Shown: positions 18,586-39,419 of the stretch, one piece after another
How positions within the stretch are numbered: position 1 is the stretch's first letter
How the letters are laid out: every line of letters starts with the position of its first letter
Assembly: GCA_050187355.1 (NCBI GenBank)
Contig: JBFWXO010000005.1
Span: 146,502-210,501, forward strand
Length of the DNA stretch: 64,000 nt
Direction: 5' to 3'
Origin: Vicinamibacterales bacterium
GTDB taxonomy: Bacteria; Acidobacteriota; Vicinamibacteria; Vicinamibacterales; UBA2999
The notes under the pieces: generated by a model
The model's database searches: none
What the model saw: the letters and a program-made list of their open reading frames with translations, nothing else
What the model was told of the DNA's origin: nothing
Position numbers and translations under genes: made by a program

Positions 18586-19292
18586 CGACCTCCGACGCCT
18601 GCGCGGCCCACACGTTCACGGCCAGGGGCCTCGCCCGCGGTGCCTCGGCCAGCGTCGCCCTCGGCCTGGCCTCGTCGGTGCTCGGCGCGGGCGTGGGCGT
18701 GGCGGCGCGGCAGGCAGGGTTGCCCCTCTGGGGGACGGTGCTGATGAGCGGCTCCGTGTTCGCCGGCGCGGCCCAGTTCGCGGCGCTGACGCTGTGGGTG
18801 GCGCCGCTGCCCTACGCGCCCATCTGGCTCTCCACCTTCGCCGTGAACGCGCGCTTCGCGCTCCTCACCGCGTCGCTCTCGCCGTGGCTGCGCCATTACC
18901 GCGGCTGGGTGCAGGGCCTGTCGACGTTCCTGATGGGCGAGGGCCAGTGGGCCATCGCCTCCAACGCGCACCTGCGCGGCGAGCGCGACATCGGCGTCTT
19001 CGTCGGCAGCGGGCTGGTCGTCTGGTTCGTGTGGATGACGGGGACGACGGTGGGCTACCTGGCGGCGCCGGTCCTCGGCGATCCCCGCCGGCTCGGCCTG
19101 GACCTGGTGCTGGTCCTCTTCTTCGCGGCCACGCTGACCACCACGTGGCGCGGCCGGCGCGATCTGGTGCCGTGGGGCGCGGCGGCGCTGGCCACGCGCC
19201 TCTCGCCGTGGATGGTCCCGCCGGAATGGCAGGTTCTCGTGGCCGCCCTCGTCGGCGCCACCGTCGGAGCATGGCGTGACGCCCACCGCTGA
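18582..19292 (+). CDS. azlC: AzlC-family branched-chain amino-acid exporter subunit
   Basis: SGSVFAGAAQFAALTLW and multiple TM helices. The ATG at 18582 overlaps the qhpE stop (ATGA). Confidence 0.75.
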   Translation: MTTSDACAAHTFTARGLARGASASVALGLASSVLGAGVGVAARQAGLPLWGTVLMSGSVFAGAAQFAALTLWVAPLPYAPIWLSTFAVNARFALLTASLSPWLRHYRGWVQGLSTFLMGEGQWAIASNAHLRGERDIGVFVGSGLVVWFVWMTGTTVGYLAAPVLGDPRRLGLDLVLVLFFAATLTTTWRGRRDLVPWGAAALATRLSPWMVPPEWQVLVAALVGATVGAWRDAHR

Positions 19293-19575
19293 CGCCGCCG
19301 TCCTGGCCATCGCGGGCATGGCCGCCCTGACCTATCTGGGACGCGCCGGCGGCCTCGTGATCGCCCGTGTGCTGCCGCCGACGCCCTTCGCCACGGCGTT
19401 CCTGAAGCACCTGGGCACCTGCGTCATCGTCGCCCTCGTGACGTCCACCGTCGCCCGCAGCGACGGGCCCGGCCTGATCGCCACCGTGGTGACCGTGGCC
19501 GCCGCCTCGCGCGGGTGGCCGACCTCGGCGATGCTGGCGGGCATGGCGGTGGCCGCAGTCCTGCGCGCGATGTGA
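19276..19575 (+). CDS. azlD: AzlD-family small membrane protein
   Basis: 99 aa with AIAGMAALTYLGRAGG at the N-terminus and 3-4 TM helices. The GTG start overlaps the azlC 3' end by 17 nt. Confidence 0.7.
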   Translation: MTPTADAAVLAIAGMAALTYLGRAGGLVIARVLPPTPFATAFLKHLGTCVIVALVTSTVARSDGPGLIATVVTVAAASRGWPTSAMLAGMAVAAVLRAM

Positions 19576-19641
19576 GCCGGCGTAAGTGCATGCCCAGGGG
19601 AGTCGAACCGTTCTCTACAGTCCGCCGGGGTCCCAAGGGCC

Positions 19642-20996
19642 TCACCGCACTGGCCCCGCCGTCAGCCGCTTCAGGTCCTCGACCCAGTTCAGCACCAGAT
19701 TGAGGTTGCCGAAGCCGGACGAGCGTTCGAGCATCACGAAGCCGCCCTTGGGCATGACGTCGTACTGGGCGAACGTTATTCCCGTGCCGTAGTTGAACTC
19801 GCGATCGAACAGTTGGACCGGTCGGCCCAGCCGCAGGCCGTCCGATCCGGCGACCACCGGCACGGCGAGCATCCTCGATCGACTGCGATAGAAGATCTCC
19901 TTTCCATCGCGGCTCCACATCGGCTGCGTGCCGCCATCGACGGAGACCGACCACTTCCGCGTCGGCTCCGGAAAATGGACGCGCTTCCATCGGCATTGCC
20001 GATGCGAAGTCCCGCGGCCGTCCTGAACACCAGCCGCTTGCCGTCGGGCGTCCAGACGCCATAGGAGTTCCCGTACGAACTTCCGATGGCGCTCTCGGAT
20101 GTCATCCGAGACATCGTCGAGCGCACGAGGTCGAGCAGGCGTCGGTCGCGGCGAGCACCCGGCTCTCGCGCGCCCACAGGTCACGCACGTACAGGCGCGG
20201 GGGCGCGCATCGGCACCGGTCTGAATGCGAGCGCGCTCGCAGCCGCCGCCGCGACGGCCGCAGCGAGCCACGCCACGCCTGCGCCAGGGAATTTCCCGGG
20301 TCGGGATGCGGAGGAGGCGGACGGCGCAGGCTCGACGTCCGTCAGGTCCAGGCGGGCGTCTCCGAAATGCTGCAATCGTCGCCGTGGGTCTTTCACGAGA
20401 CAGCGCCGCAGGAGGCGCTGTACGTTCGGCGGCGTATCTACTGGCAGGCGGGTCCAGTCCGGGTCTGCCTTGAGCACCTCGCCAATCAGCTCGGCCACCG
20501 AGCTGACGCGGAATGGCGGAGTGCCAATCAGCATCTCGAACAACACGCATCCGAACGCCCAGAGGTCGGCCGGTCGACCTGCGTCCTCGCCGCGAGCCTG
20601 CTCCGGCGCCATGTACGCCGCCGTCCCCAGCACGATTCCCAGGCCGGTCGACTGAGCCGGGCCGGTCGTCGTCGGTGCGTGTGCAGCGTCAGGCCCGCTC
20701 GCTGACTTCGCTCGGGCGTCCACCAATTTCGCCAGACCGAAATCCAGAACCTTCACGGTGCCATCCGGACGCACCTTGACGTTCGCGGGCTTGAGGTCAC
20801 GATGGACGATTCCGCGGTCGTGCGCAGCCTCGAGGCCGTCGGCGATCTGCGCCGCCAGCCGTACGGCGTCGTCCGGGGGCCGTACTTCTCCGTCAGCGCC
20901 GGCCACTCCCCGCGACAGGTAACCGGCACCACGGTCAATTCGCCGCGATAGGTGTTCGCCGCTCACTTTCCCCTTGACAGTCTTTTCAGGCTGCAC
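19642..20996 (-). pseudogene. Decayed Ser/Thr protein kinase fused to a TolB-like beta-propeller. It is 5'-truncated, frameshifted and internally deleted.
   Basis: The kinase C-lobe is intact in one frame (VHRDLKPAN at nt 20781-20807, then DFGLAK and APE). No Gly-loop or VAIK N-lobe is present. The TolB-like blades are split over two other frames (YGVWTPDGKRLVF at 19776-20177; PMWSRDGKEIFYRS...NLVLNWVEDLKRL at 19642-~19990). Only about 0.6 kb is left for a domain that is normally much longer. Confidence 0.75.
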
Positions 20997-21146
20997 CGCG
21001 ATTCAGCGCGAGAGTGCGCGCAGAACCGCTGCATGCGTCGCCCGACCGGCCCGTAGGCCACGAACTGAAGCCATGACCGCGTTCGGCGTGTTTTGGCTGG
21101 CGCTCTCGAGCCAGAGGCAATCCTGAGCGACCAGCTTCGGCGTCCG

Positions 21147-21152
21147 TATGAT
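21147..21152 (+). promoter_or_regulatory. -10-like hexamer TATGAT, 5 nt upstream of the ATG at 21158
   Basis: The sequence reads cgtccgTATGATggggaATG with no SD. Confidence 0.25.
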
Positions 21153-21157
21153 GGGGA

Positions 21158-22495
21158 ATGACGCCCCCGATCGCTCTCGACGTTCCCTCGACGACCGCGG
21201 CTGACACGTCGCTCGTTCCTGCCGCCTCCTCCACGAACGACCTCGGCGAAGCCATCGCCGAACTGGCCACGAAGCTTCACGCCGCCACGTATCAGTTGCT
21301 CGTGCTCCTGCGCGAGTTCGACGCACGTCGCGGTTGGAACGATGGGTTCCTGTCGTGCGCCCACTGGCTCCATTGGCGCACGGGCATCGACCTCGGCGCC
21401 TGCCGCGAGAAGGTGCGCGTGGCCCGGGCGCTTGCTGCGCTGCCGCTCACCAGTATGACTATGGAGGCCGGTCAGGTGTCGTACGCCAAGGTGCGCGCCA
21501 TCACGCGCGTGGCCACGCCGGAGAACGAGCGTCGACTCGTGGATCTGGCCCTCGCCGGGACGGCGGCACAGGTCGAGCGGGTGGTGCGCGCCTGGCGCCG
21601 TGCGGATCTGGCAGAGGAACGGGCACACGAGAATCAGCGGCATCTTCGGCGACACCTGACGACGTGGGTGGACGACGACGGCATGGTGGTCATCCGCGGC
21701 CGGCTTTCGCCCGAGGTCGGCGCCGTCGTACAGCGCGCGCTCGAGGTGGCCGCTGACATGCTGCGCGGGGAGGGCGTCGGTGTGCCGCCCGCTGCCACAC
21801 TGGAGGAAGACGTGACGCCTACGCAGCGCCGGGCGGACGCACTCGGACGCCTGGCGGAGGTGGCGCTAACCGCCTCGCTCGACCGCGGCTCCTCCGGGGA
21901 TCGCTATCAGGTGGTGCTGCACGTCGAACAGGGCGCCACTGAGAGTTCGGCAATTGCGATGGGCGGCGTCATCGAGATGGATGGTGTGCCGGTCTGCGTT
22001 TCCGCGGAAACGTCGCGGCGCCTCGCGTGCGATGCGGCGGTTATCGAGATGGCGCACGACGCCTCCCGTACGCCACTGGATGTCGGCCGCCGGACGCGCC
22101 CCATCCCATCGGCGATTCGGCGAGCCCTCGACGCACGAGACCGGCACTGCCGGTTCCCCGGCTGCACCTCGCGGCGGTGCGACGCCCATCACGTCGAGCA
22201 CTGGATGGATGGCGGCGCGACGAGCCTGTCGAACCTCGTGCTGCTCTGCCGCCGCCATCATCGGGCGATTCACGAGGGTGGATACGGGGTGTCGATGGAC
22301 CGCGACGGCGCCACCGTCTTCAGGCGCCCTGACGGATCGGGAATCGAAGCGGCCCCTCGAATGCCCCTGACACCTGGCGACCTCCAGCGGCCCGCAGCAC
22401 CTCGGCGCCTGCCCACGTGGGACGGGACGCCGCTGGACGTCGCGTGGGCAGTCGACATGCTGCGGTCCCGCCAAGGCCCCACGACGGTCGGTTGA
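21158..22495 (+). CDS. DUF222-type HNH endonuclease (REP13E12-like family)
   Basis: N-terminal DUF222-like helical region (ATYQLLVLLREFDARRGW...CAHWLHWRTGIDLGACREKVRVARAL). C-terminal HNH motif CRFPGC..RCDAHHVEHW..GG.T.L.NLVLLCRRHHRAIHEG. Confidence 0.8.
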   Translation: MTPPIALDVPSTTAADTSLVPAASSTNDLGEAIAELATKLHAATYQLLVLLREFDARRGWNDGFLSCAHWLHWRTGIDLGACREKVRVARALAALPLTSMTMEAGQVSYAKVRAITRVATPENERRLVDLALAGTAAQVERVVRAWRRADLAEERAHENQRHLRRHLTTWVDDDGMVVIRGRLSPEVGAVVQRALEVAADMLRGEGVGVPPAATLEEDVTPTQRRADALGRLAEVALTASLDRGSSGDRYQVVLHVEQGATESSAIAMGGVIEMDGVPVCVSAETSRRLACDAAVIEMAHDASRTPLDVGRRTRPIPSAIRRALDARDRHCRFPGCTSRRCDAHHVEHWMDGGATSLSNLVLLCRRHHRAIHEGGYGVSMDRDGATVFRRPDGSGIEAAPRMPLTPGDLQRPAAPRRLPTWDGTPLDVAWAVDMLRSRQGPTTVG

Positions 22496-22562
22496 CGACG
22501 GTCGGAGCCCGCCCCGGCCCATCGATGAAGTCCTGCGCCCGCACGCTCGTCGGAGGGCCTCG

Positions 22563-23936
22563 ATGCCCTATCCTCAACCGATGAGCTCGAGCGCAGCTCC
22601 CCGTCACCGACATCCTCGACGCCTGCGGCCGCACGCCCGCGGGCGCTCTTCGTGGGCGTCCGCGTGTGGGCGCTGGCCCGTCGCGGCGCTCGCCGCCGGG
22701 CTGATCGCGGCCCTGGCGGCATCGCCCGCCGCCCGCCAGCCGTCGCAGGCTCCGGCACCCGGTAGTTCTACCCGCATCGTCAAGATCGCGGGCGACGCGC
22801 ACAAGCTGCTGCTGCGGGCCGACGGCACGGTGGCCGGATGGGGCACCTACATCTCGGGGCAGCTCGGCCCCGTGGCCGCCATCCCAGGCGCCAACAGCCG
22901 GGCCACGGCCCTCGTCGCGATCGCGCTGCCCGCCAAGGCGGTGGACATCGCCGCGAACGCCGATGCGTCCTACGCCGTGCTCGACGACGGCACCGTGATG
23001 GCGTGGGGCCGCGCCGATGCCGGACAGCTCGGCAACGGCCAGGGGCAGGCGCCGCGGCTCGCGACGAGCACGCAGTCGTCGGAGTATCGCGGCGTCGAGA
23101 CCCCGACGCGTATCGAGGGCCTGAGCGATGTCGCGAGCGTGGCAGCCGACGGCACGTCGGCGTACGCCGTACTCACCGACGGCACCGTGCGCGCGTGGGG
23201 CGGCCGCAACATCGGCGATGGCCGTGCCAAGAGCGACTACACCGGGCCGCCGAGCACGGCCGGCCCGGCGTACCGGCCTGTCGAGGTGCCGGGCCTCACC
23301 GGTGTGGTCGCCGTGTCGGCCGGAGGGGGATGTGTCCTGGCGCTCACGAAGGACGGCCGCGTCGTCTCGTGGGGCTCGAACTTCTACGGGGCGCTCGGAC
23401 GTCCGCCGCGCGTGGAGCTCGCGCTCGACAACCCTGGGGAGATTCCTGGACTGACCGACGTCGTGCAGGCCGTGGCCGGCGCCGGGATTTCGACCGCGGT
23501 GAAGAAGGACGGCACCGTCTGGGTGTGGGGCTCGAACTGGCAGCAGCAGTTCGGGTTCCCGGCACCCACGGTGCAACCCGGCCCGGACCGCGGCTTCGTC
23601 CTCGAACCCCAGCAGGTGCCGGGCCTCACGACCGTCACCGCGGTGGCGCTCGGCGTCAACGGGCGCCACACGCTGGCGCTCCTGAAGGACGGCACGCTGC
23701 GCGTCTGGGGCAACCAGGACTGGGGACAGGCGGGAACGGGCGCCGGACCCGGCTACCACCCCCGGCCACTCACACCGAAGATCGCGGGCGTCGCGGCGGT
23801 GTTCGCGGCCGGCAACAACTCGTTCGCCGTGCTGCGCGACGGCACGCTGTGGGCGTGGGGCAGCGGCGGCGCCGGCCAGTTCCCCCTGACCTCCAACGTC
23901 CGCGTGCCGACGCCCGCGCCGGCCGGACTCAGGTGA
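22563..23936 (+). CDS. Secreted RCC1-repeat (beta-propeller) protein
   Basis: N-terminal hydrophobic anchor. About 7 repeats of the ...DGTV.AWG.N..GQLG... type (GTVAGWGTYISGQLG, GTVMAWGRADAGQLG, GRVVSWGSNFYGALG, GTVWVWGSNWQQQFG, GTLRVWGNQDWGQAG, GTLWAWGSGGAGQ). Confidence 0.75.
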   Translation: MPYPQPMSSSAAPRHRHPRRLRPHARGRSSWASACGRWPVAALAAGLIAALAASPAARQPSQAPAPGSSTRIVKIAGDAHKLLLRADGTVAGWGTYISGQLGPVAAIPGANSRATALVAIALPAKAVDIAANADASYAVLDDGTVMAWGRADAGQLGNGQGQAPRLATSTQSSEYRGVETPTRIEGLSDVASVAADGTSAYAVLTDGTVRAWGGRNIGDGRAKSDYTGPPSTAGPAYRPVEVPGLTGVVAVSAGGGCVLALTKDGRVVSWGSNFYGALGRPPRVELALDNPGEIPGLTDVVQAVAGAGISTAVKKDGTVWVWGSNWQQQFGFPAPTVQPGPDRGFVLEPQQVPGLTTVTAVALGVNGRHTLALLKDGTLRVWGNQDWGQAGTGAGPGYHPRPLTPKIAGVAAVFAAGNNSFAVLRDGTLWAWGSGGAGQFPLTSNVRVPTPAPAGLR

Positions 23937-24040
23937 GGCGGAACGCGGGCGCACCGGCAGCGGGCACGAGCCAGTAGCACGGAACGCCGAGCGCCACCTC
24001 GCGGCCCTCGGGATTCGGCCAACGGTCCCCACCGTCCCGT

Positions 24041-24065
24041 CGCGAATCAACCTCAACGATTCGCG
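24041..24065. terminator. 8-bp perfect hairpin at the convergent junction of the RCC1 gene and malQ. It spans the malQ stop codon.
   Basis: cgcgaatc-aacctcaac-gattcgcg. No clear U-tract follows, so function as a terminator is uncertain. Confidence 0.25.
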
Positions 24066-25630
24066 GCGGCGCACCAGTCGTGCAGGGCCTGGGCCCGCTC
24101 GACCCACTGCGGCGAGTCACGCCACCGGTCGACGGGTATCGGCACCTTCCACGTCCAGTTGGCGTCGCCCACGGTGGCCGGCGTGTTGATGCGGGCCTCC
24201 CAGCCGAACACGTCCTGGAGGGGCAGCATGACATAGCGCGCGGGGCTGGCGAGGAGCGCGCGAAGGATCGCGTCGCGGACGTCCGGCACGAACGGCCGCG
24301 CGTGCTCCACCGGCCACGGGCCGCTCGCGGCGAGGCCGGACAGCGCCAGCACGTCCGCCCGGTGCGCCTCGCTCAGGTCCCGCCACCACTCGGCCAGCGT
24401 CTCGGTGTCGTGCGTCCCCGTGAGCGCCACCGACACCTCGGGGTACGCGGACGGGTCCACGAAGGGCTGGCCCTCTTCGGTCCACGCGCGCTCCCAGCGC
24501 ATGACCTTGAAGCCGGGGACGCCCAGGCGCGCCATGGACCACCGGACGAAGTCGGGCACGGTGCCCAGATCCTCGGCGACGATCTCGAGGCCCGTGCCGA
24601 GATAGATGTTGAGGAGCCGCGCGCCGAGGCGGCTCTGCATCGTCTCGTCCGGCGGGGAGAAGACGCGGGGCTGGGTGTCGTCGTGCGGCCGGACGTAGAT
24701 GCGGTAGAGCCCTACCAGGTGATCGACACGCAGCCCGTCGAAGAGCGCGGCCAGCCGCCGGGCCCGGGCTCGCATCCACTTGAAGCCCGTGTCCTGCATC
24801 GGCTCCCAGCGCCAGGGCGGCAGCCCCCAGTCCTGCCCGCTGTCGGAGAAGGCATCCGGCGGCACCCCGACCGAGGCGTCGAGCATGAACTGCTCGCGCC
24901 GCTCCCACACGTCGGGACTGTCGCCCGAGATCATGAACGGCAGGTCGCCGAACATCCGCACGCCCGCCGACGCCCGGCGCGCCGCCTGCCACTGATCCTC
25001 CGCGATCCATTGCAGGTAGGCGCGATACCCGCGTTCCTCGTCGAGCGCCCCGGCCGCCTGCGCGACGGCCCCGCGATCGCACGACGCCAGCGCCGGCGGC
25101 CACTGCCACCACGCCTTCTCGTCCTGCGACGCGTGGATCGCCCGGAAGGTGGTGTAGGCGTCGAGCCACCACGCCTCGCGGGCGATGTAGGCGCCGAACG
25201 CCCGGGCCCGCGCCGTGTCGTGGGCGAGTTCGTCGCGCCTGAACCGCGCGTACGCGCGCCGCATCACCTGCGACTTCAGCGCCCGGACATCGGCGTAACG
25301 GACGCCCGCCGACGCGCGGACCGCCTCGAGGCGCTCGCGCTCGGCGGCGCCGAGCGCCGCCTCTCCGCCCAGGGCCGCCACGTCGGGCACGCCGGGGACG
25401 TGGATGTACAGCGGATCGAGCGCCATCGCCGACATCGACGAGTACGGCGACGTCTCGCCCGGCGAGATCTCGTTGAGCGGCAGGAGCTGGACGTACCGCT
25501 GGCCGGCCTCGCGGCACCAGGCCGCGAACGCCGGCAGGTCGGTGAACTCGCCCAGGCCCCAGCCCGTGGACGACGCCAGCGAGAACAGCGGGACGCCGAT
25601 GCCGCTCTGGCGCGTCGGCCGCGCGCTCAC
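24053..25630 (-). CDS. malQ: 4-alpha-glucanotransferase (amylomaltase, GH77)
   Basis: GIGVPLFSLASSTGWGLGEFTDL...YVQLLPLNE...SPYSSMSAMALDPLYI and VDHLVGLYRIY. The GTG start at 25630 overlaps the upstream stop (GTGA). Confidence 0.85.
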   Translation of the reverse strand: MSARPTRQSGIGVPLFSLASSTGWGLGEFTDLPAFAAWCREAGQRYVQLLPLNEISPGETSPYSSMSAMALDPLYIHVPGVPDVAALGGEAALGAAERERLEAVRASAGVRYADVRALKSQVMRRAYARFRRDELAHDTARARAFGAYIAREAWWLDAYTTFRAIHASQDEKAWWQWPPALASCDRGAVAQAAGALDEERGYRAYLQWIAEDQWQAARRASAGVRMFGDLPFMISGDSPDVWERREQFMLDASVGVPPDAFSDSGQDWGLPPWRWEPMQDTGFKWMRARARRLAALFDGLRVDHLVGLYRIYVRPHDDTQPRVFSPPDETMQSRLGARLLNIYLGTGLEIVAEDLGTVPDFVRWSMARLGVPGFKVMRWERAWTEEGQPFVDPSAYPEVSVALTGTHDTETLAEWWRDLSEAHRADVLALSGLAASGPWPVEHARPFVPDVRDAILRALLASPARYVMLPLQDVFGWEARINTPATVGDANWTWKVPIPVDRWRDSPQWVERAQALHDWCAAANR

Positions 25631-29764: not shown

Positions 29765-30193
29765 TTGACCTCGCTGGAGCGCGGTGCCACGCTGTGGGCC
29801 GTGACGCTCGGGACCGCGCTCGCCGCCGAGTTCGACCGCCGCCGGCGGCACAACCCTCGCTACTCGCTGCGTGCGTTCGCGCGGTCGCTCGGCGCCTCGC
29901 ACTCCGCGGTGAGCCGCCTGCGGCGGCAGGAATGCCGGCCCTCCGATCGCACCCTCGCCGTGCTCGGCGGCCGCCTGGGGTGGAGCGCGCCCGAGGTTGT
30001 CGCCGCGCAGCGCCGCGAGCGCGTCGATCGGCTGCGGGCGCTGGCCGCCGCGCCAGGGTTCGCGGCCGACGCGCGGTGGATCGCCCAGCGGACCGCGATG
30101 TCGCTCGACGAGGTCCAGGTGGCGCTGCAGGAGGCGCTCCGCCTGGGAACGCTGGCGATGCCGGCCGCCGATCGCTGGCGCGTGGAGGAGTGA
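29765..30193 (+). CDS. Hypothetical protein with an HTH-like segment (resembles the TIGR02147/DUF4423 N-terminus)
   Basis: NPRYSLRAFARSLGASHSAVSRLRR. GC3 is high. Only a TTG start is available at 29765, so the start is uncertain. Confidence 0.45.
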   Translation: MTSLERGATLWAVTLGTALAAEFDRRRRHNPRYSLRAFARSLGASHSAVSRLRRQECRPSDRTLAVLGGRLGWSAPEVVAAQRRERVDRLRALAAAPGFAADARWIAQRTAMSLDEVQVALQEALRLGTLAMPAADRWRVEE

Positions 30194-30564
30194 TGGGAGC
30201 CCCGGTCGTCCGCTGGCAGATCGTCTCGCCCCGCCCGGACGAGGTGGTCCGGTTCTACGGGGCGGTGTTCGGATGGGTGGAACGCCGCGACAACGCCCTG
30301 GGCTATCGGGCGCTTCAGACGGGCGGCGGCATCCAGGGCGGCGTCTGGCCGGCCCCCGCCGATGCCGCCACGTTCGTCCAGCTCTTCGTCGAGGTGGACG
30401 ATGTGGACGCCGCGATCGAGGCCGCGCTCGCCCACGGAGGCGCCGTGGTGGTGCCGCGGTCGGTCCTGCCGGACGGCGACGTGATGGCCATCCTGCGCGA
30501 CCCGCTGGGCACGAGCGTCGGCCTGGTCACTCCCGCTTCCCGGACCGCCGCGCCCAATAGCTGA
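30193..30564 (+). CDS. VOC (glyoxalase/bleomycin-resistance) family protein
   Basis: 123 aa. RWQIVSPRPDEVVRFYGAVFGW......VDDVDAAIEAALAHGGAVVVP.....GDVMAILRDPLG. The ATG at 30193 overlaps the previous stop. Confidence 0.7.
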   Translation: MGAPVVRWQIVSPRPDEVVRFYGAVFGWVERRDNALGYRALQTGGGIQGGVWPAPADAATFVQLFVEVDDVDAAIEAALAHGGAVVVPRSVLPDGDVMAILRDPLGTSVGLVTPASRTAAPNS

Positions 30565-30793
30565 ACTCGGGCTGGTAGCAGACCCCCTCCAGGTCGGTGA
30601 CGCGGTCCTGGAAGTAGCGCTGAGCATCGCCGATGGCGCGGTTGTAGACCACGGCCCCCACCTCGGCCAGGCAGAACTCCAGGAAGAGCGCCGCCTTGAG
30701 GTCGCCGATCTCCTCGTCGAGGTGCTCGGCGCAGAACTTCTTGATGGACGTGTGCAGCTGTCTGGTGACCTCGGGCGGGAGCGTGACGGGCAT
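30527..30793 (-). CDS. DUF2164-family small protein
   Basis: 88 aa. IKKFCAEHLDEEIGDLKAALFLEFCLAEVGAVVYNRAIGDAQRYFQDRVTDLEG is typical of DUF2164. Confidence 0.6.
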   Translation of the reverse strand: MPVTLPPEVTRQLHTSIKKFCAEHLDEEIGDLKAALFLEFCLAEVGAVVYNRAIGDAQRYFQDRVTDLEGVCYQPEFSYWARRSGKRE

Positions 30794-31497: not shown

Positions 31498-32625
31498 ATG
31501 CCGCGAACGGCCAGGAACCCGCCGCCGATGACCACCGCCCGGACGACGTTCGTGCTCGTGATGGGGACGGGCTTCGCCAACGCGGCCAAGCGCCGCGCGG
31601 CCCGCCTGATCGGCGGCATGCTGGCCGACGCCGGCTTCGGCCTCGTCACCGGCAACTCGACCGGCGTGGACTACTGGGTGGCCCGGAGCTTCTGCGATGC
31701 GATCGCCGAACGCGGCGGGTCGCCGGAAGGCGCCGTCTGGCAGGTGTCCCTGGGCGCCAGCCGGATCCTGCGGCGAGGCGGGTGGCCCCTGCCGGGCTTC
31801 GCCGCCCCGCGTGCGTGCCGGGTGGCCGTCACCGATGTCGAGACCTGGAAGCGCGAGGCCGTGTCACGAGCCGACGCGGGCGTGATGGTGGGCGGCGGGC
31901 GCGGCGCGCTCGACATCGCGCGCCGCATGCTGGACCGCGGACGCCCCGTCTTCCCGCTGCCCTTCATGGGCGGGCTGACCGGCAACTCCGACGAGGTGTT
32001 CCAGGACATCCTCCGGACGTGGGAGGCGCACCCGGTGCCGGGCGTCAGCCGTTCGCAGTACCTGCGGCTGGCCGAGCCCTGGGTGAGCGGCACCGGCGAG
32101 CTCGCGAACCTGCTCCGGGGCACGCTGGCCGAGCGGCCCGACATCTTCGTGTCCTACCGGCGCAGCGACGCGCCGGCCGCCGCCGGGCGGATCGCGCACG
32201 AACTGGCCGAGCACTTCGGATCGCGGCGGGTGTTCTTCGACGTCAGCGGGATCGCGCCGAGCCACGCGTGGGACGAGACCATCAGGCAGGCGGTCGACGC
32301 GTGCGCCGTCGGCGTGGTCGTGATCGGACGGTCGTGGCTGGCACGGGGACCCGGCGGCGAACCTCCCCGGCTCCACCAGCCGAACGACGTCGTCCGGGGG
32401 GAGATCGAGGCGCTGATCGCCGGCAGGAAGGTGCTCTTCCCGGTCGTGGTGGAAGGCGCGAGGCTCCCCGACGCGGCCGACCTGCCGGAGTCGCTCGCGG
32501 CGCTGCCGCGCTTCCAGGCCGTCACGCCCGCCAACGGCGACTGGGACGTCACGATCGGGCTGCTCGTCCGCGAGATCGAGGCCGTCCTCCACCATCCGGA
32601 CCGGCATCGTCGCCCGCCGCCGTAA
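31498..32625 (+). CDS. Two-domain protein: an N-terminal SLOG-like (LOG/DprA-type Rossmannoid) domain fused to a C-terminal TIR-like domain
   Basis: N-terminal domain: FVLVMGTG..., GLVTGNSTGVD (nt 31639-31671) and VGGGRGALDIARRMLDRGRPVFPLP (nt 31888-). C-terminal domain: DIFVSYRRSD...RVFFD...VVVIGRSWL...NDVVRGEIEALIAGRKVLFPVVV, which follows the TIR pattern with a conserved Glu at nt 32401-32403. Confidence 0.6.
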   Translation: MPRTARNPPPMTTARTTFVLVMGTGFANAAKRRAARLIGGMLADAGFGLVTGNSTGVDYWVARSFCDAIAERGGSPEGAVWQVSLGASRILRRGGWPLPGFAAPRACRVAVTDVETWKREAVSRADAGVMVGGGRGALDIARRMLDRGRPVFPLPFMGGLTGNSDEVFQDILRTWEAHPVPGVSRSQYLRLAEPWVSGTGELANLLRGTLAERPDIFVSYRRSDAPAAAGRIAHELAEHFGSRRVFFDVSGIAPSHAWDETIRQAVDACAVGVVVIGRSWLARGPGGEPPRLHQPNDVVRGEIEALIAGRKVLFPVVVEGARLPDAADLPESLAALPRFQAVTPANGDWDVTIGLLVREIEAVLHHPDRHRRPPP

Positions 32626-32679
32626 TTGCTACGATGGCGCGGGTCGAGCGAGCCCGCCGCCAACCGCCCGGGGCCGCGC

Positions 32680-35600
32680 ATGAGCGCCATCTTCATCAGC
32701 CACAGCTCGAAAGACAGCGCGTTGGCGCGCGCCGTCGAGCAGCGTCTCAGCGGCCAGGACTTCCACTCGGTCTTCCTCGACCTCGATCCCGCGAAGGGCA
32801 TCGTCGGAGGCCAGAGCTGGGAGCGGACCCTTTACCGCAAGCTCCGGGCGTGCCGCGCCGTCATTGCGATCTGCACCGCCGAGTACCTGCGATCGCACTG
32901 GTGCTTCGCCGAAATCGCCCTGGCCAGGATGGAGGGCAAGCCCGTGATCGGCCTGCTGGCCGGTCCGCTGCCCGCCGACGCCGCGCTGCCGGCCATCCTG
33001 ACCGAGCGGCAGCTGATCGATCTGGGTCGCGGCGAGGACGACGCCTACGGGCGGCTCTGGCGCGCGCTCGAGGCGCTGGACCTCACCGGCGTCGCCACGA
33101 ACTGGAATCCGAAGGAGCCGCCGTATCTCGGGCTGAGCGCGTACCAGGAAGATCACGCGCCCGTGTTCTTCGGGCGTGAGGACGAAGCGCTCGCGGCCCT
33201 CGAACTGCTCGATCGGGGCGCCCCGCCGGTCGTGCTGGTGCTGGGGGCCTCGGGCAGCGGCAAGTCGTCCCTCGTCCGCGCCGGGGTGCTCCCGCGCCTG
33301 CGGGCCCGCGAGGACTGGCTGATCGTGGACCCGTTCCGGCCCGGCCGCGATCCCTGGGCGGAGCTGACCGAGTCGTTCGGCCGCGCCTTCGACCGCTACG
33401 CGCCCGATCACCTCGACGAGGCGGGTCGGCGACGCCAGTTGCGCGAGCGGCTGAGTGCCGCATGGACGCCTCCTGCCGCCGCCGAACCCGAGCCGGCACC
33501 GGACCCCGCCGGCGAGCGGGCCCCCGATGAGCGCCTGCGCCGCCTGATCGAGGTGCTGGAACGCGTGCGCCAGGACCCGCCGCCACTCACGCCGCGTGTA
33601 CGCAACTATCTCGAGTGGAGCCTCGACGACCTCCGCCGCCTGTCGGCTGGGCCGGCGCCGCCGGGCGAGACGATCGCCGCGCCCGGAACGACACCCCTCG
33701 TCGAGGCCGCGCTCGACCTGCGCCGCCTCTCGCGGCACCGCGACGCGCGAGTCCTCGTGGTCATCGACCAGTTCGAGGAGCTGCTCGGACGGGACGAGCC
33801 GGCCGTGCACGACTTCCTCGCGATGCTCCACGCATCGGTGGAGGCCGCACACAGTCCCGTGACGATCGTCGGCACGCTGCGGTCCGACTTCCTCGGGCTG
33901 TTCCAGCACCACCCCGCCCTCCACGGCGTGGACTTCGAGAGCCTGTCCCTGGGACCCATGCGGGCGGACGGCATGCGGCGCGTCGTCACGATGCCGGCGC
34001 GGCTCGCGGCCATCGAGATCGAGGACGGCCTCGTCGATCGTCTGCTGGCCGACACCGGCACGCCGGACGCGCTGCCGATGCTGTCTTTTACGTTGTCGGT
34101 GATGTGGCGGGATCGGCGCGGGGACGAGCCGCTCACGCTCGCCGCCTATGAGCGGCTCGGCGGCCTGCAGGGCACGATCGCGCGCGAGGCCGAGGCCGTG
34201 CTCGCCACGGCCGTCCGGGAACGGAAGGAGGACGCCCTCCGGCGGGCCCTGCTGCAGATGGCGCGGCTCGGTGACGACGGCACGTACGCGCGCCGGCCCG
34301 TGGACTGGGACCACGCCGACATCCAGCGCGTTCACGACCTGCTGACCACGTTGGTGGACCGCCGGGTGCTCGTCACGCGCTTGGACGGCGATCGCCGGAT
34401 CGTGGAGGTGGCGCACGAGGCGCTGTTCCGCGCCTGGACGCCGCTGCAGGCGTGGCTCACCAATGCGCGGTCCGAGCTGCTCCTGGCGCAGCAGATCGAG
34501 CGCGACGCCGCCGCCTGGCACGACGCCGGCCGGCCCGGCGATGTGTTGTGGCGGGGCGGCCGCCTGCTCCAGGCCCACGAGCTCCTGCGCGCCGACGACC
34601 GGCGCGCGGGTCGCGCGGACGCCCCGACCGCGTTCGTGCGCGCTGGCATGGCGAGACGCCGGTGGCAGCGCGTGCTCGTAACGGGTGCCGCCGTCAGCGT
34701 CCTGGCGGTGCTCGGCGCGTTCCTGGCGTTCGCCGTGATCCAGGCGGCGCGGGCCACGCGCGAACAGGTCCGGGCCCTCGACATCGCACGCGTGGCCGTC
34801 GCGGGCGAATGGCTTCCGCGCGACCCCACCAGCGCCGCCCTCGTGCTCCTGGAACTGCAGAACCCGACGGCCACGCGCTTCGCGCCCCGGCGACTCGGTG
34901 AGGCCCTGCGCCGCCCCCTCGTCCGCACCGAGCTTCGCCACGAGCACGCCGTCCACAGCGTCGCGCTCGACACGAACGGCACGCGCGTCGTCACGACGTC
35001 CGGGTCGTCGGCGACGGTGTGGGACGCCGTGACGGGGCGCGCGATCCGCGTCCTGGGCCACGACGAGGCCGTCGTGGCCGCGACGATCGACCCGACGGGC
35101 CGTCTGGTGGCGGTGCGGACGGGCACCGTGGGTGAGGAGTACTATCGCGACGCCGCGGGAACGGCGGTGCACGTCTGGGACCTGGACGCGGGCACCCGGC
35201 GGTTCAGCGTGACCCACGCCGACGCCGTCAACGGCGCAGCCTTCGCGCCAGACGGGCGCCTGGTGCTGACGTGGGGGAAGGACGGCACGGTGCAGCTGTG
35301 GGACGCGGAGGGCGGCGTGCGGCGTCGCACCTGGACGCAGGGGAACGACGTCAGGGACGCCACCTTCAATCCGGCGGGCACCCTCGTCGTGGCCGTGACC
35401 GCGGATGGCGCCCGGGTGTGGTCGGTGGACGCGGATCTCCCGATCGCCACGCTGCCAACCGACCGCCCGATCCAGACCGCGGCCTTCAACCCGGACGGCA
35501 CGCTCCTGGTGACGGCCGGCGACGGAGGCCTCGTAACGTGGGCCGTCGATGGCTGGACGCGGCAGCACCAGTTGGAAGCGCCCTTCACCAGACGCGTCGC

Positions 35601-37311
35601 GTTCAGCGCCGACGGCCGGCTGCTGCTCGGCGTGTCGTTCGACGAGGTCCGCGTCTGGGACGTCGCCGGTGGCGGCCCGCTGGTCCGCGATCCCATCGTC
35701 CACCGCGGACTCGTTGCGGCCGGCTTCACGGCGGATGGGTCGCTCGTCGTCACGGCCGACGGACACGAGGATCGGCGCGCCTACGGCTCGCCGCCAGCGG
35801 CGGGCGCCGTGCGCTTCTGGCGCGCGCGCTCCGGCGACCTCCTGGAGGAGCGCGTGCTGACCTTCGGGTCGGAGGTCATGCACGTGGCGTTCGGTCCGCG
35901 GATGGAGTCGGTCGCGATCACGTCCGCGCGGCGCGTCGGCAGCGGGCGCCCCGAGACGTTCGAGGAGGAGACCGTGGCGCGCCTGTGGGATCTCTCGCTC
36001 GGCGACCATCGGACGCTCTGGGGGGCGGAGCGGGCGGATCCGGTGACGACGGTGGCCTTCAGTCCGGACGGCCGACACGTCCTGAACGTCGCGGGCCGCA
36101 CCGCGTGGCTCTCCGACCCCGCAACCGGCGCGCCGACGGCCACGCTGCAGCACGACGCTGACATCCTGTCGGCTGTCTTCGACGCCGACGGCACGGTGGT
36201 CGTCACCGCCAGCCGCGACATGACGGCGCGCGTGTGGGACGTGGCAACCGGGCGCGAGCGCTTCCGTGCCCTGCACGACGACGCCGTCGAGCAGGCCCTC
36301 CTGGTGGCCGGCGACCGCTTTCTGGCCACGCGCACGTCGTCCACGGCGCGGCTCTGGACGCTCGCCTCCGGTGTGGCCGATCGGGGCTCGGCGCGGTTCG
36401 AGACGCCGGACGGCGGCGATCCCACGGGTCGGAACGACTGGCGGGACGACTTCAGCCCGGACGGCGGGCTGATGGCCCCGCGGCACGACCAGAGCGTCAC
36501 GATCGTCGACACGGCGACGGGCAAGGTCCTCCACACGCTGGTGCACGGCGGCTACGTCCGCTTCACCGCGTTTGCCGACGGCGGGCGGCTGCTCGTGACC
36601 GGCGGAGACGAGAAGGTCGCCCGCGTCTGGGACGTGGCCAGCGGCACCACCCGTTTCACGCTGGAGCACGGGGCGCAGCTCACCGATCTCGTCCTTGGTC
36701 CGGATGGGCGGACGATCCTGTCGGTGGACGAGAGCGGCACGGGCCACCTGTGGGACGGCACGACCGGCACTCACCTGGCGGGCCTGCCGCACGGATGCAG
36801 CGCGCGCGACGGATGGTTCGTGGCCGACGGGTCACTGGTCGTGACCCGATCCCTGGGCGGCGGAACCCTGGGGTGTGAGGCGAACGTGACGGTCTGGGAC
36901 GCGGCGACCGGGGCACGGCGGTCCTCGATGCCCGTCTCCGGCGACAGGCCAGTAGGATTCAACGGCGGCGGCACCGTGATGTGGGAGGCCATGCGGGAAG
37001 TGGAGGCGGCCCAGCGCGACGGAATTCGCACCTGGGATGTCGACACCGGCGAACCGCGCCTCAGCGAGCCCTACTGGACCGGCACGGACGTCCGGACCGC
37101 GGCGGCCAGCCCGGACGGCGCGCGCGTGGTGACGGCGGCGGGACCGGCGCTCACCATGTGGGCCACGGGCGGAGCGCTGCTTCAGGAGCGGCTGTCGGCC
37201 GTCACCACCGCGTGTCTGTCGCCCGAGTTCCGCCGCCAGAATCTCGGGGAGTCGGCGGATGCCGCCTCACGGGCCCACGACGCGTGCGAGCGCCGGCGAG
37301 GTCGCCGGTAG
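32680..37311 (+). CDS. TIR domain / STAND-type P-loop NTPase / single hydrophobic helix / multi-blade WD40 protein (1543 aa)
   Basis: TIR: MSAIFISHSSKDSALA...AVIAICTAEYLRSHWCFAEIALA (Glu at nt 32911-32913). Walker A GASGSGKSS (nt 33244-33267). Walker B-like VLVVIDQFEELL (nt 33751-33780). Hydrophobic helix at nt 34672-34740. About 14-17 WD40-like blades follow (recurrent ..H...V.......G..V.T...D.TARVWD...G), roughly nt 34930-37150. The start was moved from TTG 32626 to ATG 32680. Confidence 0.8.
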   Translation: MSAIFISHSSKDSALARAVEQRLSGQDFHSVFLDLDPAKGIVGGQSWERTLYRKLRACRAVIAICTAEYLRSHWCFAEIALARMEGKPVIGLLAGPLPADAALPAILTERQLIDLGRGEDDAYGRLWRALEALDLTGVATNWNPKEPPYLGLSAYQEDHAPVFFGREDEALAALELLDRGAPPVVLVLGASGSGKSSLVRAGVLPRLRAREDWLIVDPFRPGRDPWAELTESFGRAFDRYAPDHLDEAGRRRQLRERLSAAWTPPAAAEPEPAPDPAGERAPDERLRRLIEVLERVRQDPPPLTPRVRNYLEWSLDDLRRLSAGPAPPGETIAAPGTTPLVEAALDLRRLSRHRDARVLVVIDQFEELLGRDEPAVHDFLAMLHASVEAAHSPVTIVGTLRSDFLGLFQHHPALHGVDFESLSLGPMRADGMRRVVTMPARLAAIEIEDGLVDRLLADTGTPDALPMLSFTLSVMWRDRRGDEPLTLAAYERLGGLQGTIAREAEAVLATAVRERKEDALRRALLQMARLGDDGTYARRPVDWDHADIQRVHDLLTTLVDRRVLVTRLDGDRRIVEVAHEALFRAWTPLQAWLTNARSELLLAQQIERDAAAWHDAGRPGDVLWRGGRLLQAHELLRADDRRAGRADAPTAFVRAGMARRRWQRVLVTGAAVSVLAVLGAFLAFAVIQAARATREQVRALDIARVAVAGEWLPRDPTSAALVLLELQNPTATRFAPRRLGEALRRPLVRTELRHEHAVHSVALDTNGTRVVTTSGSSATVWDAVTGRAIRVLGHDEAVVAATIDPTGRLVAVRTGTVGEEYYRDAAGTAVHVWDLDAGTRRFSVTHADAVNGAAFAPDGRLVLTWGKDGTVQLWDAEGGVRRRTWTQGNDVRDATFNPAGTLVVAVTADGARVWSVDADLPIATLPTDRPIQTAAFNPDGTLLVTAGDGGLVTWAVDGWTRQHQLEAPFTRRVAFSADGRLLLGVSFDEVRVWDVAGGGPLVRDPIVHRGLVAAGFTADGSLVVTADGHEDRRAYGSPPAAGAVRFWRARSGDLLEERVLTFGSEVMHVAFGPRMESVAITSARRVGSGRPETFEEETVARLWDLSLGDHRTLWGAERADPVTTVAFSPDGRHVLNVAGRTAWLSDPATGAPTATLQHDADILSAVFDADGTVVVTASRDMTARVWDVATGRERFRALHDDAVEQALLVAGDRFLATRTSSTARLWTLASGVADRGSARFETPDGGDPTGRNDWRDDFSPDGGLMAPRHDQSVTIVDTATGKVLHTLVHGGYVRFTAFADGGRLLVTGGDEKVARVWDVASGTTRFTLEHGAQLTDLVLGPDGRTILSVDESGTGHLWDGTTGTHLAGLPHGCSARDGWFVADGSLVVTRSLGGGTLGCEANVTVWDAATGARRSSMPVSGDRPVGFNGGGTVMWEAMREVEAAQRDGIRTWDVDTGEPRLSEPYWTGTDVRTAAASPDGARVVTAAGPALTMWATGGALLQERLSAVTTACLSPEFRRQNLGESADAASRAHDACERRRGRR
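34672..34740 (+). other. Predicted transmembrane helix inside the TIR-STAND-WD40 ORF
   Basis: VLVTGAAVSVLAVLGAFLAFAVI, flanked by RRRWQR upstream and QAARATRE downstream. Confidence 0.5.
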
Positions 37312-37454: not shown

Positions 37455-39419
37455 CTACGCCCGCCGGTGGGCGGAGTAGGCCAGCATCTGCGCCGCGAAA
37501 TCGCAGGAGTAGGACACCATCACGTCCGTGATGGCCCCATGGGCGTCGTGCACGGGCGTCAGCGTCGGCATGACGAACGCGGTGTAGGACGGCAGGTTCA
37601 GCGCGTCCACCCGCGCGACGATCTCGTCGCGCAGCGACGCGTCGAAGTGCACGCCGTAGGTGTCGAACAGCTCGCGCGCGGCGGCGTAGTCGCCCTCGGA
37701 CTTGATCCGCTGCACCTCGTGCAGCATCCGGGCGACGCCCTCGCGGAACTCCGCCACGCTGTCGACGACGTGGTAGGTGCGCCCGTTCCTGATGCGCACC
37801 GAGATCGCGCGCGTGTGGGCCAGCAGCCAGTGCACGATGGCCTGCCGGTTGCGCATGTGGTCTTCTTCGAGCTGCGTGCCCTCGCGGACGCGCCGGAGCT
37901 GGACGAGCGCGGTGCGCGCGTAGGACTCGTACTCGGTCCGGACGACGTCGGCGAACTCGTCCGCCTGGACGAGCCCGAGCTCGACCATCATCGGGTCGGC
38001 GCAGAAATACAGGGCCACGAGGTCGGCCCGCGTCTCCTCGAGCGCCGAGTACTGCTCGCGCAGCAGCTCCTGCGGCTGGGCCTGCGCGGCGGCGTTCATC
38101 CGCCCCGAGCCGTGGCCCAGCACCTCGTGGATCTCGGTGGCGATCTCGCTCGCCATGCCGCCCCAGCGCTTCGCGCGCTGGAACTCCTCGTCGGACCATG
38201 CGAACTCGCGGCGGTACTCGTCGGTGGTACTCAACTCGTACGCCTCGGTCACGTTGGCCAGGGTCACGGACTTGCTGCCGTAGGCCTCGCGCACGCGCTG
38301 GTCGTTCGGCAGGTTGACGCCGATCGGCGTGATCGGGCCCGCGTCGCCCGTCTCGATCACGACCTCGATCGCGCTCGCCGTCACGCCCTGCACGACCGGC
38401 TTGCGGTACATCGGCGCGATGGGCATCCGGTCCTCGAACCACTGCGCGTGGGCGGCCAGCGCCTCGATGCGGGCGGTCTTGGCGCGGTTCACGTAGTAGA
38501 CCATGCCCTCCCACGCGCCCTTCATGCCGCGGGCGTCCATGTAGACCTCGATGAAGCCGTTCATGGTGTCCACGGGGGAATCGGTGGCGGTCACCCACGC
38601 GACGTCGAAGGCGGCGCGGTCCTCGTCGTCGCCGGAGCGATACCAGCGGACCAGCGCCTCGAGCGCGCCGGCGAATCGCGGCGGGGCCCAGCGGATAGCC
38701 GCCTCCAGGTGCTCGACGACCTGGGCCAGCTCGGCGCCGTAGCGGCCGCCGACGCGGTACACCTCTTCGACGAGCACGCCGTCGCGCTTGACCAGCCGCG
38801 AGTTCAGCGGATGGCGCTCGACGACGCTCTCGAGGTCCGCCATCGTCACGCCGTCGTACAGGTTGTTCGCGCTGTCGCGCAGGATGTCGCCGCCGGCGCC
38901 CGGGGACTTGTTCGTGACCATCGGGTCCACGGACGGATCGAGCAGGTACGGCGCGAGCCGGCGGGCCAGGTCGCCCGGGGCCTCGCCGGGCCGGCAGGCG
39001 AAGCGGGCGCCCGCGGCGGCGGCGGCGGTGGCGGCCGCCACCAGCGCCTCGACGCTCAGCCGCAGCACGAACTTCCTCGCGGTGAGGTTGTTGAACGGCC
39101 CGGAGTTGATCCAGAAGAGCTTGGTGTAGCGCCAGACCTCGCGCGCCACGTCCGGCGCCAGCGCCGACTCCCGCAGCACCAGCGCCTCGAGGAAGTCGCG
39201 CATCTCCAGCGCATGCCGGTAGCGCTGGTCGGTGTAGATGTCCCGGCCGGCCAGCGCCGCCTGGTACAGGTGCCAGACGAGCGTCTTCTGATCGAGGGTG
39301 AGCTGGTCGAAGCCGTCCGCGTACAGCTGGACGATGGCGGCGTCGTCCACGCGCTCCAGGAGATAGCGGCGGGACGCCACAGCGGTAGCGTCGTGGCGGG
39401 TCGAGGCGTCGTGCGGCAT
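37455..39419 (-). CDS. Dipeptidyl-peptidase III-like zinc metallopeptidase (M49 family)
   Basis: HEVLGH (HExxGH) followed by EETRAD (EExRAE/D), the two M49 zinc-binding motifs. 654 aa. Confidence 0.75.
   Translation of the reverse strand: MPHDASTRHDATAVASRRYLLERVDDAAIVQLYADGFDQLTLDQKTLVWHLYQAALAGRDIYTDQRYRHALEMRDFLEALVLRESALAPDVAREVWRYTKLFWINSGPFNNLTARKFVLRLSVEALVAAATAAAAAGARFACRPGEAPGDLARRLAPYLLDPSVDPMVTNKSPGAGGDILRDSANNLYDGVTMADLESVVERHPLNSRLVKRDGVLVEEVYRVGGRYGAELAQVVEHLEAAIRWAPPRFAGALEALVRWYRSGDDEDRAAFDVAWVTATDSPVDTMNGFIEVYMDARGMKGAWEGMVYYVNRAKTARIEALAAHAQWFEDRMPIAPMYRKPVVQGVTASAIEVVIETGDAGPITPIGVNLPNDQRVREAYGSKSVTLANVTEAYELSTTDEYRREFAWSDEEFQRAKRWGGMASEIATEIHEVLGHGSGRMNAAAQAQPQELLREQYSALEETRADLVALYFCADPMMVELGLVQADEFADVVRTEYESYARTALVQLRRVREGTQLEEDHMRNRQAIVHWLLAHTRAISVRIRNGRTYHVVDSVAEFREGVARMLHEVQRIKSEGDYAAARELFDTYGVHFDASLRDEIVARVDALNLPSYTAFVMPTLTPVHDAHGAITDVMVSYSCDFAAQMLAYSAHRRA

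Follow-up and report, generated by a model that had tools for sequence, protein, structure and literature searches.

Do two neighbouring genes of a Vicinamibacterales bacterium, each encoding a protein with a TIR domain, work together as a dedicated pair, or do they lie side by side as independent units? The genes are located in a stretch of 64,000 nucleotides (contig JBFWXO010000005.1, positions 146,502 to 210,501), here called the window, with a G+C content of about 73%. Gene 1 encodes a protein in which a SLOG domain is fused to a TIR domain, and gene 2 a large TIR-nSTAND1 protein with a transmembrane helix and a C-terminal WD40 region. An initial annotation had proposed that the two form a sensor-amplifier module of an undescribed kind. 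Comparative genomics lends no support to a dedicated sensor-amplifier pair; the exact pairing is unique to this organism among all loci examined, and the claim of a new two-gene system fails in the neighbourhood test. The locus is probably better described as two autonomous single-gene TIR-based conflict modules, predicted to act in anti-phage defence or abortive infection, which occupy a variable slot of a syntenic housekeeping region.

The neighbourhood test was made from both sides. About 40 gene-1 loci were examined, 34 from species-representative genomes and 6 from metagenomes, and a gene-2 orthologue or TIR-nSTAND1 neighbour was found at none of them. The underlying tblastn search of the 34 genome loci with gene-2 domains was too insensitive for divergent STAND and TIR proteins and bears on gene-2 orthologues only. 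Clustering of the flanking open reading frames (ORFs) of the same 34 loci revealed no conserved neighbour of gene 1, no cluster being common to more than four loci. Gene-1 orthologues are often monocistronic and bracketed by housekeeping genes on the opposite strand (SNF2, sulfate permease, PBP1, ketopantoate reductase, CLC channel), and what few neighbours they have on their own strand are unrelated genes of housekeeping function. The gene is likewise solitary in its closest relatives from metagenomes (68-71% identity) and in two distant ones.

On the side of gene 2, 83 loci of relatives were examined (three annotated contexts and 80 metagenome loci), 43 of which are long enough to accommodate a gene upstream. 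Neither tblastn nor a profile hidden Markov model at E<=1 detected a SLOG domain in any of the 83. At one of these loci (L085) a LOG-like protein of 365 aa is encoded 3.3 kb upstream of the gene-2 relative; it was rejected as a counterpart, being unrelated to gene 1 by BLASTP and without a TIR domain. A partnership with a TIR domain on both proteins was thus found nowhere else, an outcome that the initial annotation had itself named as refuting, and the proposed sensor-amplifier module finds no support from either side.

The layout in the window is as initially described, with two same-strand genes 54 bp apart, the ORFs extending from 31498 to 32625 and from 32626 to 37311, the latter with the gene-2 ATG at 32680. 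In a public assembly of this organism (Logan contig), the independently called genes have lengths of 365 aa (gene 1) and 1543 aa (gene 2). The length of 375 aa first given for gene 1 is that of the longest ORF, which starts at 31498; the independent call starts at Met11 (nt 31528). In public records the exact match of the gene-1 protein carries the annotation of a TIR protein from a Vicinamibacterales metagenome-assembled genome (MAG), and the match of the M49 peptidase encoded beyond gene 2 is likewise from Vicinamibacterales. The features of the locus, together with four gene-1 loci of other genomes, are summarized in Table 1.

Table 1. Features of the gene 1-gene 2 locus (window coordinates) and gene-1 loci of other genomes with TIR or STAND neighbours
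Feature	Position	Strand	Basis, or genes nearby
DUF2164 gene, left border of the variable slot	30527..30793	-	69% identical to the DUF2164 gene product after M49 in L170
OmdA/YdeI gene, 210 aa	30854..31486	+	PF13376; independent call shows DUF8412+OmdA
Gene 1, SLOG(cluster 4)-TIR protein	31528..32625	+	ORF, translation, independent gene call (365 aa)
Gene-1 SLOG domain (predicted LOG/DprA-like Rossmannoid)	31549..32133	+	PF18306, Foldseek, ThsA SLOG match
Gene-1 TIR domain, SARM1-like	32134..32592	+	TIR_2, SARM1 profile match, Foldseek
Gene 2, TIR-nSTAND1-transmembrane-WD40 protein, 1543 aa	32680..37311	+	translation, Pfam, independent gene call
Gene-2 TIR domain, motif SHWCFAEIALA	32689..33057	+	TIR_2, residues 4-126
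Gene-2 nSTAND1 NTPase module	33121..34536	+	PF20703
Gene-2 single predicted transmembrane helix, residues 665-687	34672..34740	+	hydropathy peak 2.5
Gene-2 WD40 beta-propeller region, about 15 blades	34927..37179	+	WD40/beta-propeller Pfam models, xWD blade ends, DNA-level internal repeats
M49 (dipeptidyl-peptidase III) gene, right border of the slot	37455..39419	-	PF03571
L008, gene-1 locus			DUF4062-NACHT-FGE and TIR-STAND nearby
L010, gene-1 locus			nSTAND1 and a TIR protein nearby
L022, gene-1 locus			TIR-NACHT-FGE, nSTAND1-FGE, SLATT pore protein directly upstream, CHAT-TPR protein downstream
L034, gene-1 locus			two TIR-like ORFs nearby

The initial reading of gene 1 as a SLOG (LOG/DprA-like) domain followed by a TIR domain was borne out. 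The Pfam model TIR_2 (PF13676) matched residues 216-325 with E 1e-11 (45.6 bits, cutoff 28), and the N-terminus scored 26.0 bits against SLOG cluster 4 (PF18306; cutoff 26.3), over residues 18-66 only. The SLOG domain contains the conserved glycine-rich loops GNSTGVD (52-58), GGGRG (132-136) and PVFPLPFMGG (150-159), which are invariant in the alignment of the family. An AlphaFold2 model built on 31 homologues reached a predicted local distance difference test score (pLDDT) of 87.7 and a predicted template-modelling score (pTM) of 0.84. When the model was compared with the PDB using Foldseek, the C-terminal half was placed on the SARM1 TIR domain (E 2e-9, TM-score 0.85-0.88, root-mean-square deviation 2-2.9 Å) and the N-terminal half on LOG (1ydh, 5its, 5zbk), DprA (3maj, 3uqz) and TT1465 (1wek) with E 2e-6 to 3e-5; the TM-scores of the latter were 0.5-0.67 to LOG and TT1465 and 0.31-0.37 to DprA. 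The N-terminal domain is accordingly modelled as a Rossmannoid fold of the LOG/DprA type.

A profile of the gene-1 family matched the SARM1 TIR domain with E 3.5e-14; the FISYRR motif and the Glu of (D)xVxKEI were aligned, and the family 'kEI' fell on the SARM1 'KEI' segment. The Glu of this segment, the catalytic E642 of SARM1, aligns with gene-1 Glu302 (codon nt 32401-32403), which is invariant in 31 sequences. The catalytic motif of LOG proteins is PGGxGTxxE. The position of its Glu is occupied by Ile140 in gene 1 and by Ile, Leu, Met or Val in the homologues, and the neighbouring Asp139 is not conserved in the family. With a hydrophobic residue in place of the LOG-motif Glu, LOG-type hydrolysis is argued against, and the SLOG domain of gene 1 is read as a putative ligand sensor rather than an enzyme. 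The best solved-structure match of a profile restricted to this domain was the SLOG domain of Streptococcus equi ThsA (7UXT, E 7e-4).

The gene-1 family comprises 114 homologue clusters at 90% identity, 40-79% identical to the window protein. Most homologues are 60-70% identical, yet come from Betaproteobacteria (Accumulibacter, Piscinibacter, Thauera); Acidobacteriota are also represented. In a Rhodocyclaceae MAG (L017:8746-11119) two same-strand copies of the family, of 391 and 383 aa, stand in tandem and are followed by two DUF1538 genes. In the MAG 'bacterium isolate UCB3' (QEVT01000031.1, L022:1000-16600) a dense cluster of conflict genes surrounds a gene-1 orthologue of 46% identity, with a two-transmembrane SLATT protein (SLATT_1/DUF4231) encoded directly upstream of the SLOG-TIR gene and a 1997-aa DUF7379-CHAT-TPR-S protein directly adjoining it downstream.

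An exhaustive profile search with the gene-1 SLOG domain retrieved 642 representatives at E<=1e-3, 353 of them at E<=1e-10. PF18306 was matched at E<=1e-3 by 53 of 66 mid-sized relatives and by 29 of 34 in another set. Among the 66 mid-sized proteins the fusion partner was TIR_2 in 42, TIR in a further 9 and SEFIR in 5; CHAT, FGE-sulfatase, pYEATS and EAD1 were also found, and caspase and trypsin are further partners of SLOG cluster 4. The large SLOG proteins include the architectures SLOG-SLOG-CHAT-AAA_5/nSTAND3, REC-SLOG-pYEATS and SLOG-caspase. SLOG-TIR is the commonest architecture of the SLOG cluster 4 clade, and the exchange of the SLOG module among effectors of the cell-death type fits a regulatory or sensor role. 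One protein of 2057 aa (P0235) contains six tandem SLOG matches of the gene-1 type (E 4e-106), then TIR_2 and, at the C-terminus, an FGE-sulfatase (C-lectin-like) domain; such an array of several SLOG copies is unusual.

For gene 2 the order initially given, a TIR domain, a STAND NTPase, a hydrophobic helix and 14-17 WD40 blades in 1543 aa, proved correct, the helix being a predicted transmembrane segment. The TIR domain was matched by TIR_2 with E 1e-17 (65.2 bits, cutoff 28), and its residues W74, C75, F76, A77 and E78 do not vary across 23 homologues. The codon of Glu78 is nt 32911-32913, so that both Glu codons named in the initial annotation are right and both residues are invariant in their families. 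The nSTAND1 model (PF20703) covered residues 148-619 with E 5e-91 (306.5 bits, cutoff 27.1) along profile positions 1-377 of 379, and the Walker A (GASGSGKSS, 33244-33270) and Walker B (VLVVIDQFEE, 33751-33780) motifs are conserved in the homologues. Fifteen blade ends of the xWD type were counted in the WD40 section (about residues 750-1500). A solved-structure sequence search with the N-terminal region of gene 2 gave no match.

The transmembrane helix of gene 2 is preceded by an Arg cluster (RRRWQR). Of the 20 aligned homologues long enough to cover this position, 19 have a corresponding helix, likewise with Arg/Lys residues clustered upstream. By the positive-inside rule, the Arg cluster before the helix would place the WD40 region outside the cytoplasm, facing the periplasm. 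Homologues of the TIR-nSTAND1 N-terminal region form more than 1000 clusters, among which the C-terminal sensor is interchangeable (WD40, FGE-sulfatase, TPR, pentapeptide). The exact gene-2 protein was absent among the matches of the large protein search, the best of which was 63% identical, though the gene was called on the Logan contig; this probably reflects a limit of the word-index candidate step.

The setting of the two genes was compared with three related Vicinamibacterales genomes (L168, L169, L170), whose M49 orthologues are 77-80% identical to that of the window. The relatives have the backbone RNase J-M49-DUF2164-...-223-aa protein-HEAT/cyclophilin-MalQ in common, and an orthologue of the 223-aa protein is present in the window (82% identity). 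In two of the three, L168 and L170, DUF2164 follows M49 directly (120-200 bp apart), and in L169 a 162-aa ORF stands between them. In the window the OmdA/YdeI gene, gene 1 and gene 2 are inserted between M49 and DUF2164, on the opposite strand to both; given the adjacency of the border genes in the relatives, this three-gene block marks the site as a variable hotspot. The OmdA/YdeI gene is co-directional with gene 1 and ends 41 bp upstream of its start at 31528, and no OmdA homologues were found beside gene-1 orthologues in other genomes. Neither tRNA genes nor meaningful flanking direct or inverted repeats were found at the borders of the block. Recent transfer was considered on grounds of composition and rejected, as the G+C content at third codon positions (GC3) of the coding sequences of gene 1 and gene 2 (0.94 and 0.91) is like that of the flanking genes.

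Beyond DUF2164 the cargo differs across the relatives (a glyoxalase and an fn3 protein, an ADP-ribosylglycohydrolase, or nothing). The ADP-ribosylglycohydrolase gene lies at L169:12890-13816, in the variable region by M49/DUF2164, and is another cargo related to NAD or ADP-ribose (ADPR). In the window a glyoxalase/VOC-family gene (30188-30564, +; 123 aa in the public call) is located between the 223-aa gene and DUF2164, next to a 142-aa ORF (29765-30193); here, too, the slot varies from relative to relative. The rest of the window consists of housekeeping genes, among them those for a K+ transporter, PQQ dehydrogenase, MalQ, RNase J and HtrA. PADLOC gave no strong defence-specific match elsewhere in the window; its generic-domain matches (RmuC at 718-2232, an ABC ATPase as 'mad3', a radical SAM protein as 'pVip', and trypsin) look like housekeeping proteins. 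A filter based on GC3 called no gene across about 6 kb (17884-24053), where the longest-ORF list has an ORF of 595 aa (22320-24107, -).

If the two genes are autonomous modules, each protein would respond and act by itself. In gene 1 the presumably non-catalytic SLOG domain would bind a nucleotide or an ADPR-derived ligand, binding would release or oligomerise the TIR domain, and the TIR domain would hydrolyse NAD+, as the conserved catalytic Glu and the likeness to SARM1 suggest. Since no source of the ligand is encoded beside gene 1 in most genomes, the ligand might be made in trans or by the protein's own TIR domain, or be derived from infection. Gene 2 would be a membrane-anchored STAND receptor whose WD40 propellers, predicted to be periplasmic, bind a cue; its nSTAND1 NTPase may then oligomerise, by analogy with other STAND proteins, and the clustered N-terminal TIR domains could become active NADases or signal generators.

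Several observations weigh against this reading, either in its autonomy or in its immune role. No terminator-like site was found in the gap between the genes by promoter and terminator consensus scans, which are uninformative at 73% G+C, and the 54-bp same-strand spacing without such a site points to co-transcription in this organism. When the gene-1 loci were rescanned by phmmer with additional queries, TIR and/or STAND genes were located within 10 kb at 4 of the about 40 (L008, L010, L022 and L034), with nSTAND1 NTPases within 2.5 kb at two of the four; as a rough estimate for random placement is well under 1-2% per locus, some association of gene 1 with TIR/STAND genes exists. In the window no recognisable defence island surrounds gene 1 and gene 2. 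Searches of phages, plasmids and IMG/VR contigs gave matches at the level of the TIR domain only and no member of the gene-1 family. With neither an island nor phage or plasmid carriage, it is domain logic that argues for an immune role, and no biochemical data on the gene-1 or gene-2 family were found in the literature.

The spacing and the four loci are also what speaks for a coupled relay, in which the gene-2 receptor, triggered by an envelope or periplasmic cue, would make an ADPR-derived messenger and gene 1 would bind it with its SLOG domain and deplete NAD+ with its TIR domain as an amplifier; in a general form, SLOG-TIR genes that stand alone would be served in trans by any TIR signal generators present in the genome. 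It fits such a relay that the solved structure closest to the gene-1 SLOG is the messenger-binding ThsA SLOG, and that some proteins fuse SLOG cluster 4 to a CHAT protease and an AAA_5/nSTAND3 NTPase. The relay nevertheless appears unlikely, as no other locus joins a gene-1 orthologue with a TIR-nSTAND1 gene, the gene-2 relatives have no SLOG domain at their loci, and about 90% of the gene-1 loci are without a TIR/STAND gene within 10 kb. Where such neighbours are present, they belong to different clades and differ in order and orientation, which is the pattern of defence-island clustering and not that of an operon. A hidden N-terminal TIR domain was sought in the nSTAND1 neighbour at L022 and rejected (hhalign probability 1.4%, no solved-structure match). 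A further version would make solitary SLOG-TIR proteins portable trans-acting amplifiers that read the ADPR-derived messenger of unlinked TIR generators; here the generator would be the adjacent gene 2, giving an 'outside-in' Thoeris-like relay from a periplasmic cue to cytoplasmic NAD+ collapse. It would explain the solitary distribution, the co-locations at four loci and the tight spacing, and is in our estimate a rather slim prospect. The same four loci among TIR/STAND conflict genes would allow a loose association of the defence-island type, or a facultative cross-talk between gene 1 and gene 2, of which the latter has in our estimate a low probability.

Non-immune roles would turn gene 2 into an envelope or developmental receptor of a large-genome soil bacterium and gene 1 into a regulator of NAD+/nucleotide homeostasis or dormancy, their adjacency being incidental. 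The housekeeping surroundings, the GC3 values, which give no sign of recent acquisition, the lack of any detected link to mobile elements and the predicted extracytoplasmic sensor of gene 2 are in keeping with such roles. They are set against the patchy, cross-phylum distribution and variable contexts of both families, which are typical of accessory conflict genes, the swapping of the C-terminal sensor among close relatives of gene 2, the cell-death effectors (TIR, CHAT, caspase) to which the SLOG module is joined, the neighbouring SLATT protein, and the catalytic Glu kept in both TIR domains; we consider the non-immune explanation improbable. Gene 1 might also be a processor of nucleotides with two enzymes, its SLOG domain being an active N-glycosidase (LOG- or Cap17-like) that processes the TIR product or depletes a nucleotide instead of sensing it. 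Its fold resembles that of LOG enzymes, ADPR derivatives are substrates of some SLOG domains according to a prediction of the Aravind laboratory (PMC9503650), and residues 120-157 match weakly to the N-terminal domain of Cap17-like ATP nucleosidases (E 1e-3) and to the PADLOC 'PN-superfamily' effector (E 1e-4). Both matches are below the curated thresholds, however, hydrophobic residues stand in for the LOG-motif Glu throughout the family with Asp139 not conserved, and among solved structures the domain is closest in sequence to the ThsA SLOG, which is non-catalytic, so that two enzymes in gene 1 are very unlikely.

If the preferred reading of two autonomous modules is true, the locus adds one more predicted example of TIR-based immunity in Acidobacteriota. 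The gene-1 family, well conserved in its 114 clusters, is matched by no PADLOC v2 model, and a literature search turned up no experimental work on it or on any other fused SLOG-TIR protein. It is a compact candidate for how a SLOG sensor may gate a TIR NADase within one polypeptide, a design which parallels ThsA (SLOG gating SIR2) and SARM1 (ARM gating TIR). The transmembrane helix conserved in the gene-2 family suggests STAND receptors whose sensing is directed beyond the cytoplasm, and we know of no experimentally characterised anti-phage STAND protein that does so.

That the pairing was not initially recognised as one of the named defence systems agrees with the PADLOC and NCBIfam system models, none of which is reached by gene 1 or gene 2. 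The nearest known system to gene 1 is Thoeris. In type I Thoeris the SLOG domain reads 3' cyclic ADP-ribose (3'cADPR) and activates SIR2, and type III consists of several TIR proteins and a SLOG effector; a systematic survey of TIR signalling systems in 2025 set aside Avs-type and standalone TIR proteins. Like gene 1, the type I effector ThsA joins SLOG to an NAD+-consuming domain and has a TIR-containing gene next door. In gene 1, however, a SARM1-type TIR domain replaces SIR2 and the order is reversed, with SLOG placed N-terminally; a small ThsB is lacking, the TIR domain next door heading a STAND receptor of 1543 aa instead, and the partner gene is not conserved across the about 40 loci. 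The effectors that define Thoeris types I-III are SIR2-SLOG, Macro-TM and the type III SLOG effector; gene 1 has no SIR2 or Macro domain and no match to the PADLOC ThsA or NCBIfam Thoeris effector models. The PADLOC ThsB models gave E 0.003-0.03 only, and the NCBIfam model of type III ThcB4 gave 25-30 bits against a cutoff of 220 (gene 1, 25.5 bits, via its TIR domain). Gene 1 would thus be ThsA-like in its working, by analogy, but it falls outside Thoeris types I-III. SARM1 offers a further likeness, as analogy only, in that a ligand-sensing allosteric domain is fused to TIR (ARM there, SLOG in gene 1); gene 1 is without SAM or ARM domains, and the identity is about 25%.

The same domain pair as in gene 1, with SLOG cluster 4 (PF18306) and STALD, is found in the 'SLOG-TIR' nucleotide-centric immune systems that are named in passages of PMC7824862 and PMC9503650 (Aravind laboratory), where Burroughs et al. 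2015 is cited. Gene 1 is a member of this predicted class, which is uncharacterised as far as the literature search shows. Gene 2 follows the logic of Avs/AVAST and bNACHT proteins, in which an effector, a STAND NTPase and a repeat sensor are combined, but its NTPase belongs to a different clade; no Avs model was among its PADLOC matches at E<=0.1, the best being 'mad8' (E 2e-6). To our knowledge, the characterised Avs proteins sense cytosolic phage proteins, whereas the sensor of gene 2 is predicted to lie outside the cytoplasm behind its transmembrane helix. The closest counterparts of gene 2 are the nSTAND1 effector-NTPase-repeat conflict proteins of Kaur et al. 2021, eLife (PMC8195603), with TIR among the listed effectors; nSTAND1 proteins with TIR or peptidase heads are also treated in PMC10907252, where STAND conflict systems have periplasmic or cytoplasmic sensors. 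The description of the locus as of an undescribed kind was therefore overstated, as both the nSTAND1 proteins (PMC8195603) and the 'SLOG-TIR' systems (PMC7824862) had been described computationally by the Aravind laboratory; with architectures predicted years ago, nothing here is surprising to a specialist. The layout of N-terminal effector, NTPase and C-terminal repeats is the same in gene 2 and in the nSTAND1 conflict proteins, and nothing essential differs; distinguished by a WD40 region of about 15 blades behind a conserved transmembrane helix, gene 2 is a member of this known predicted class.

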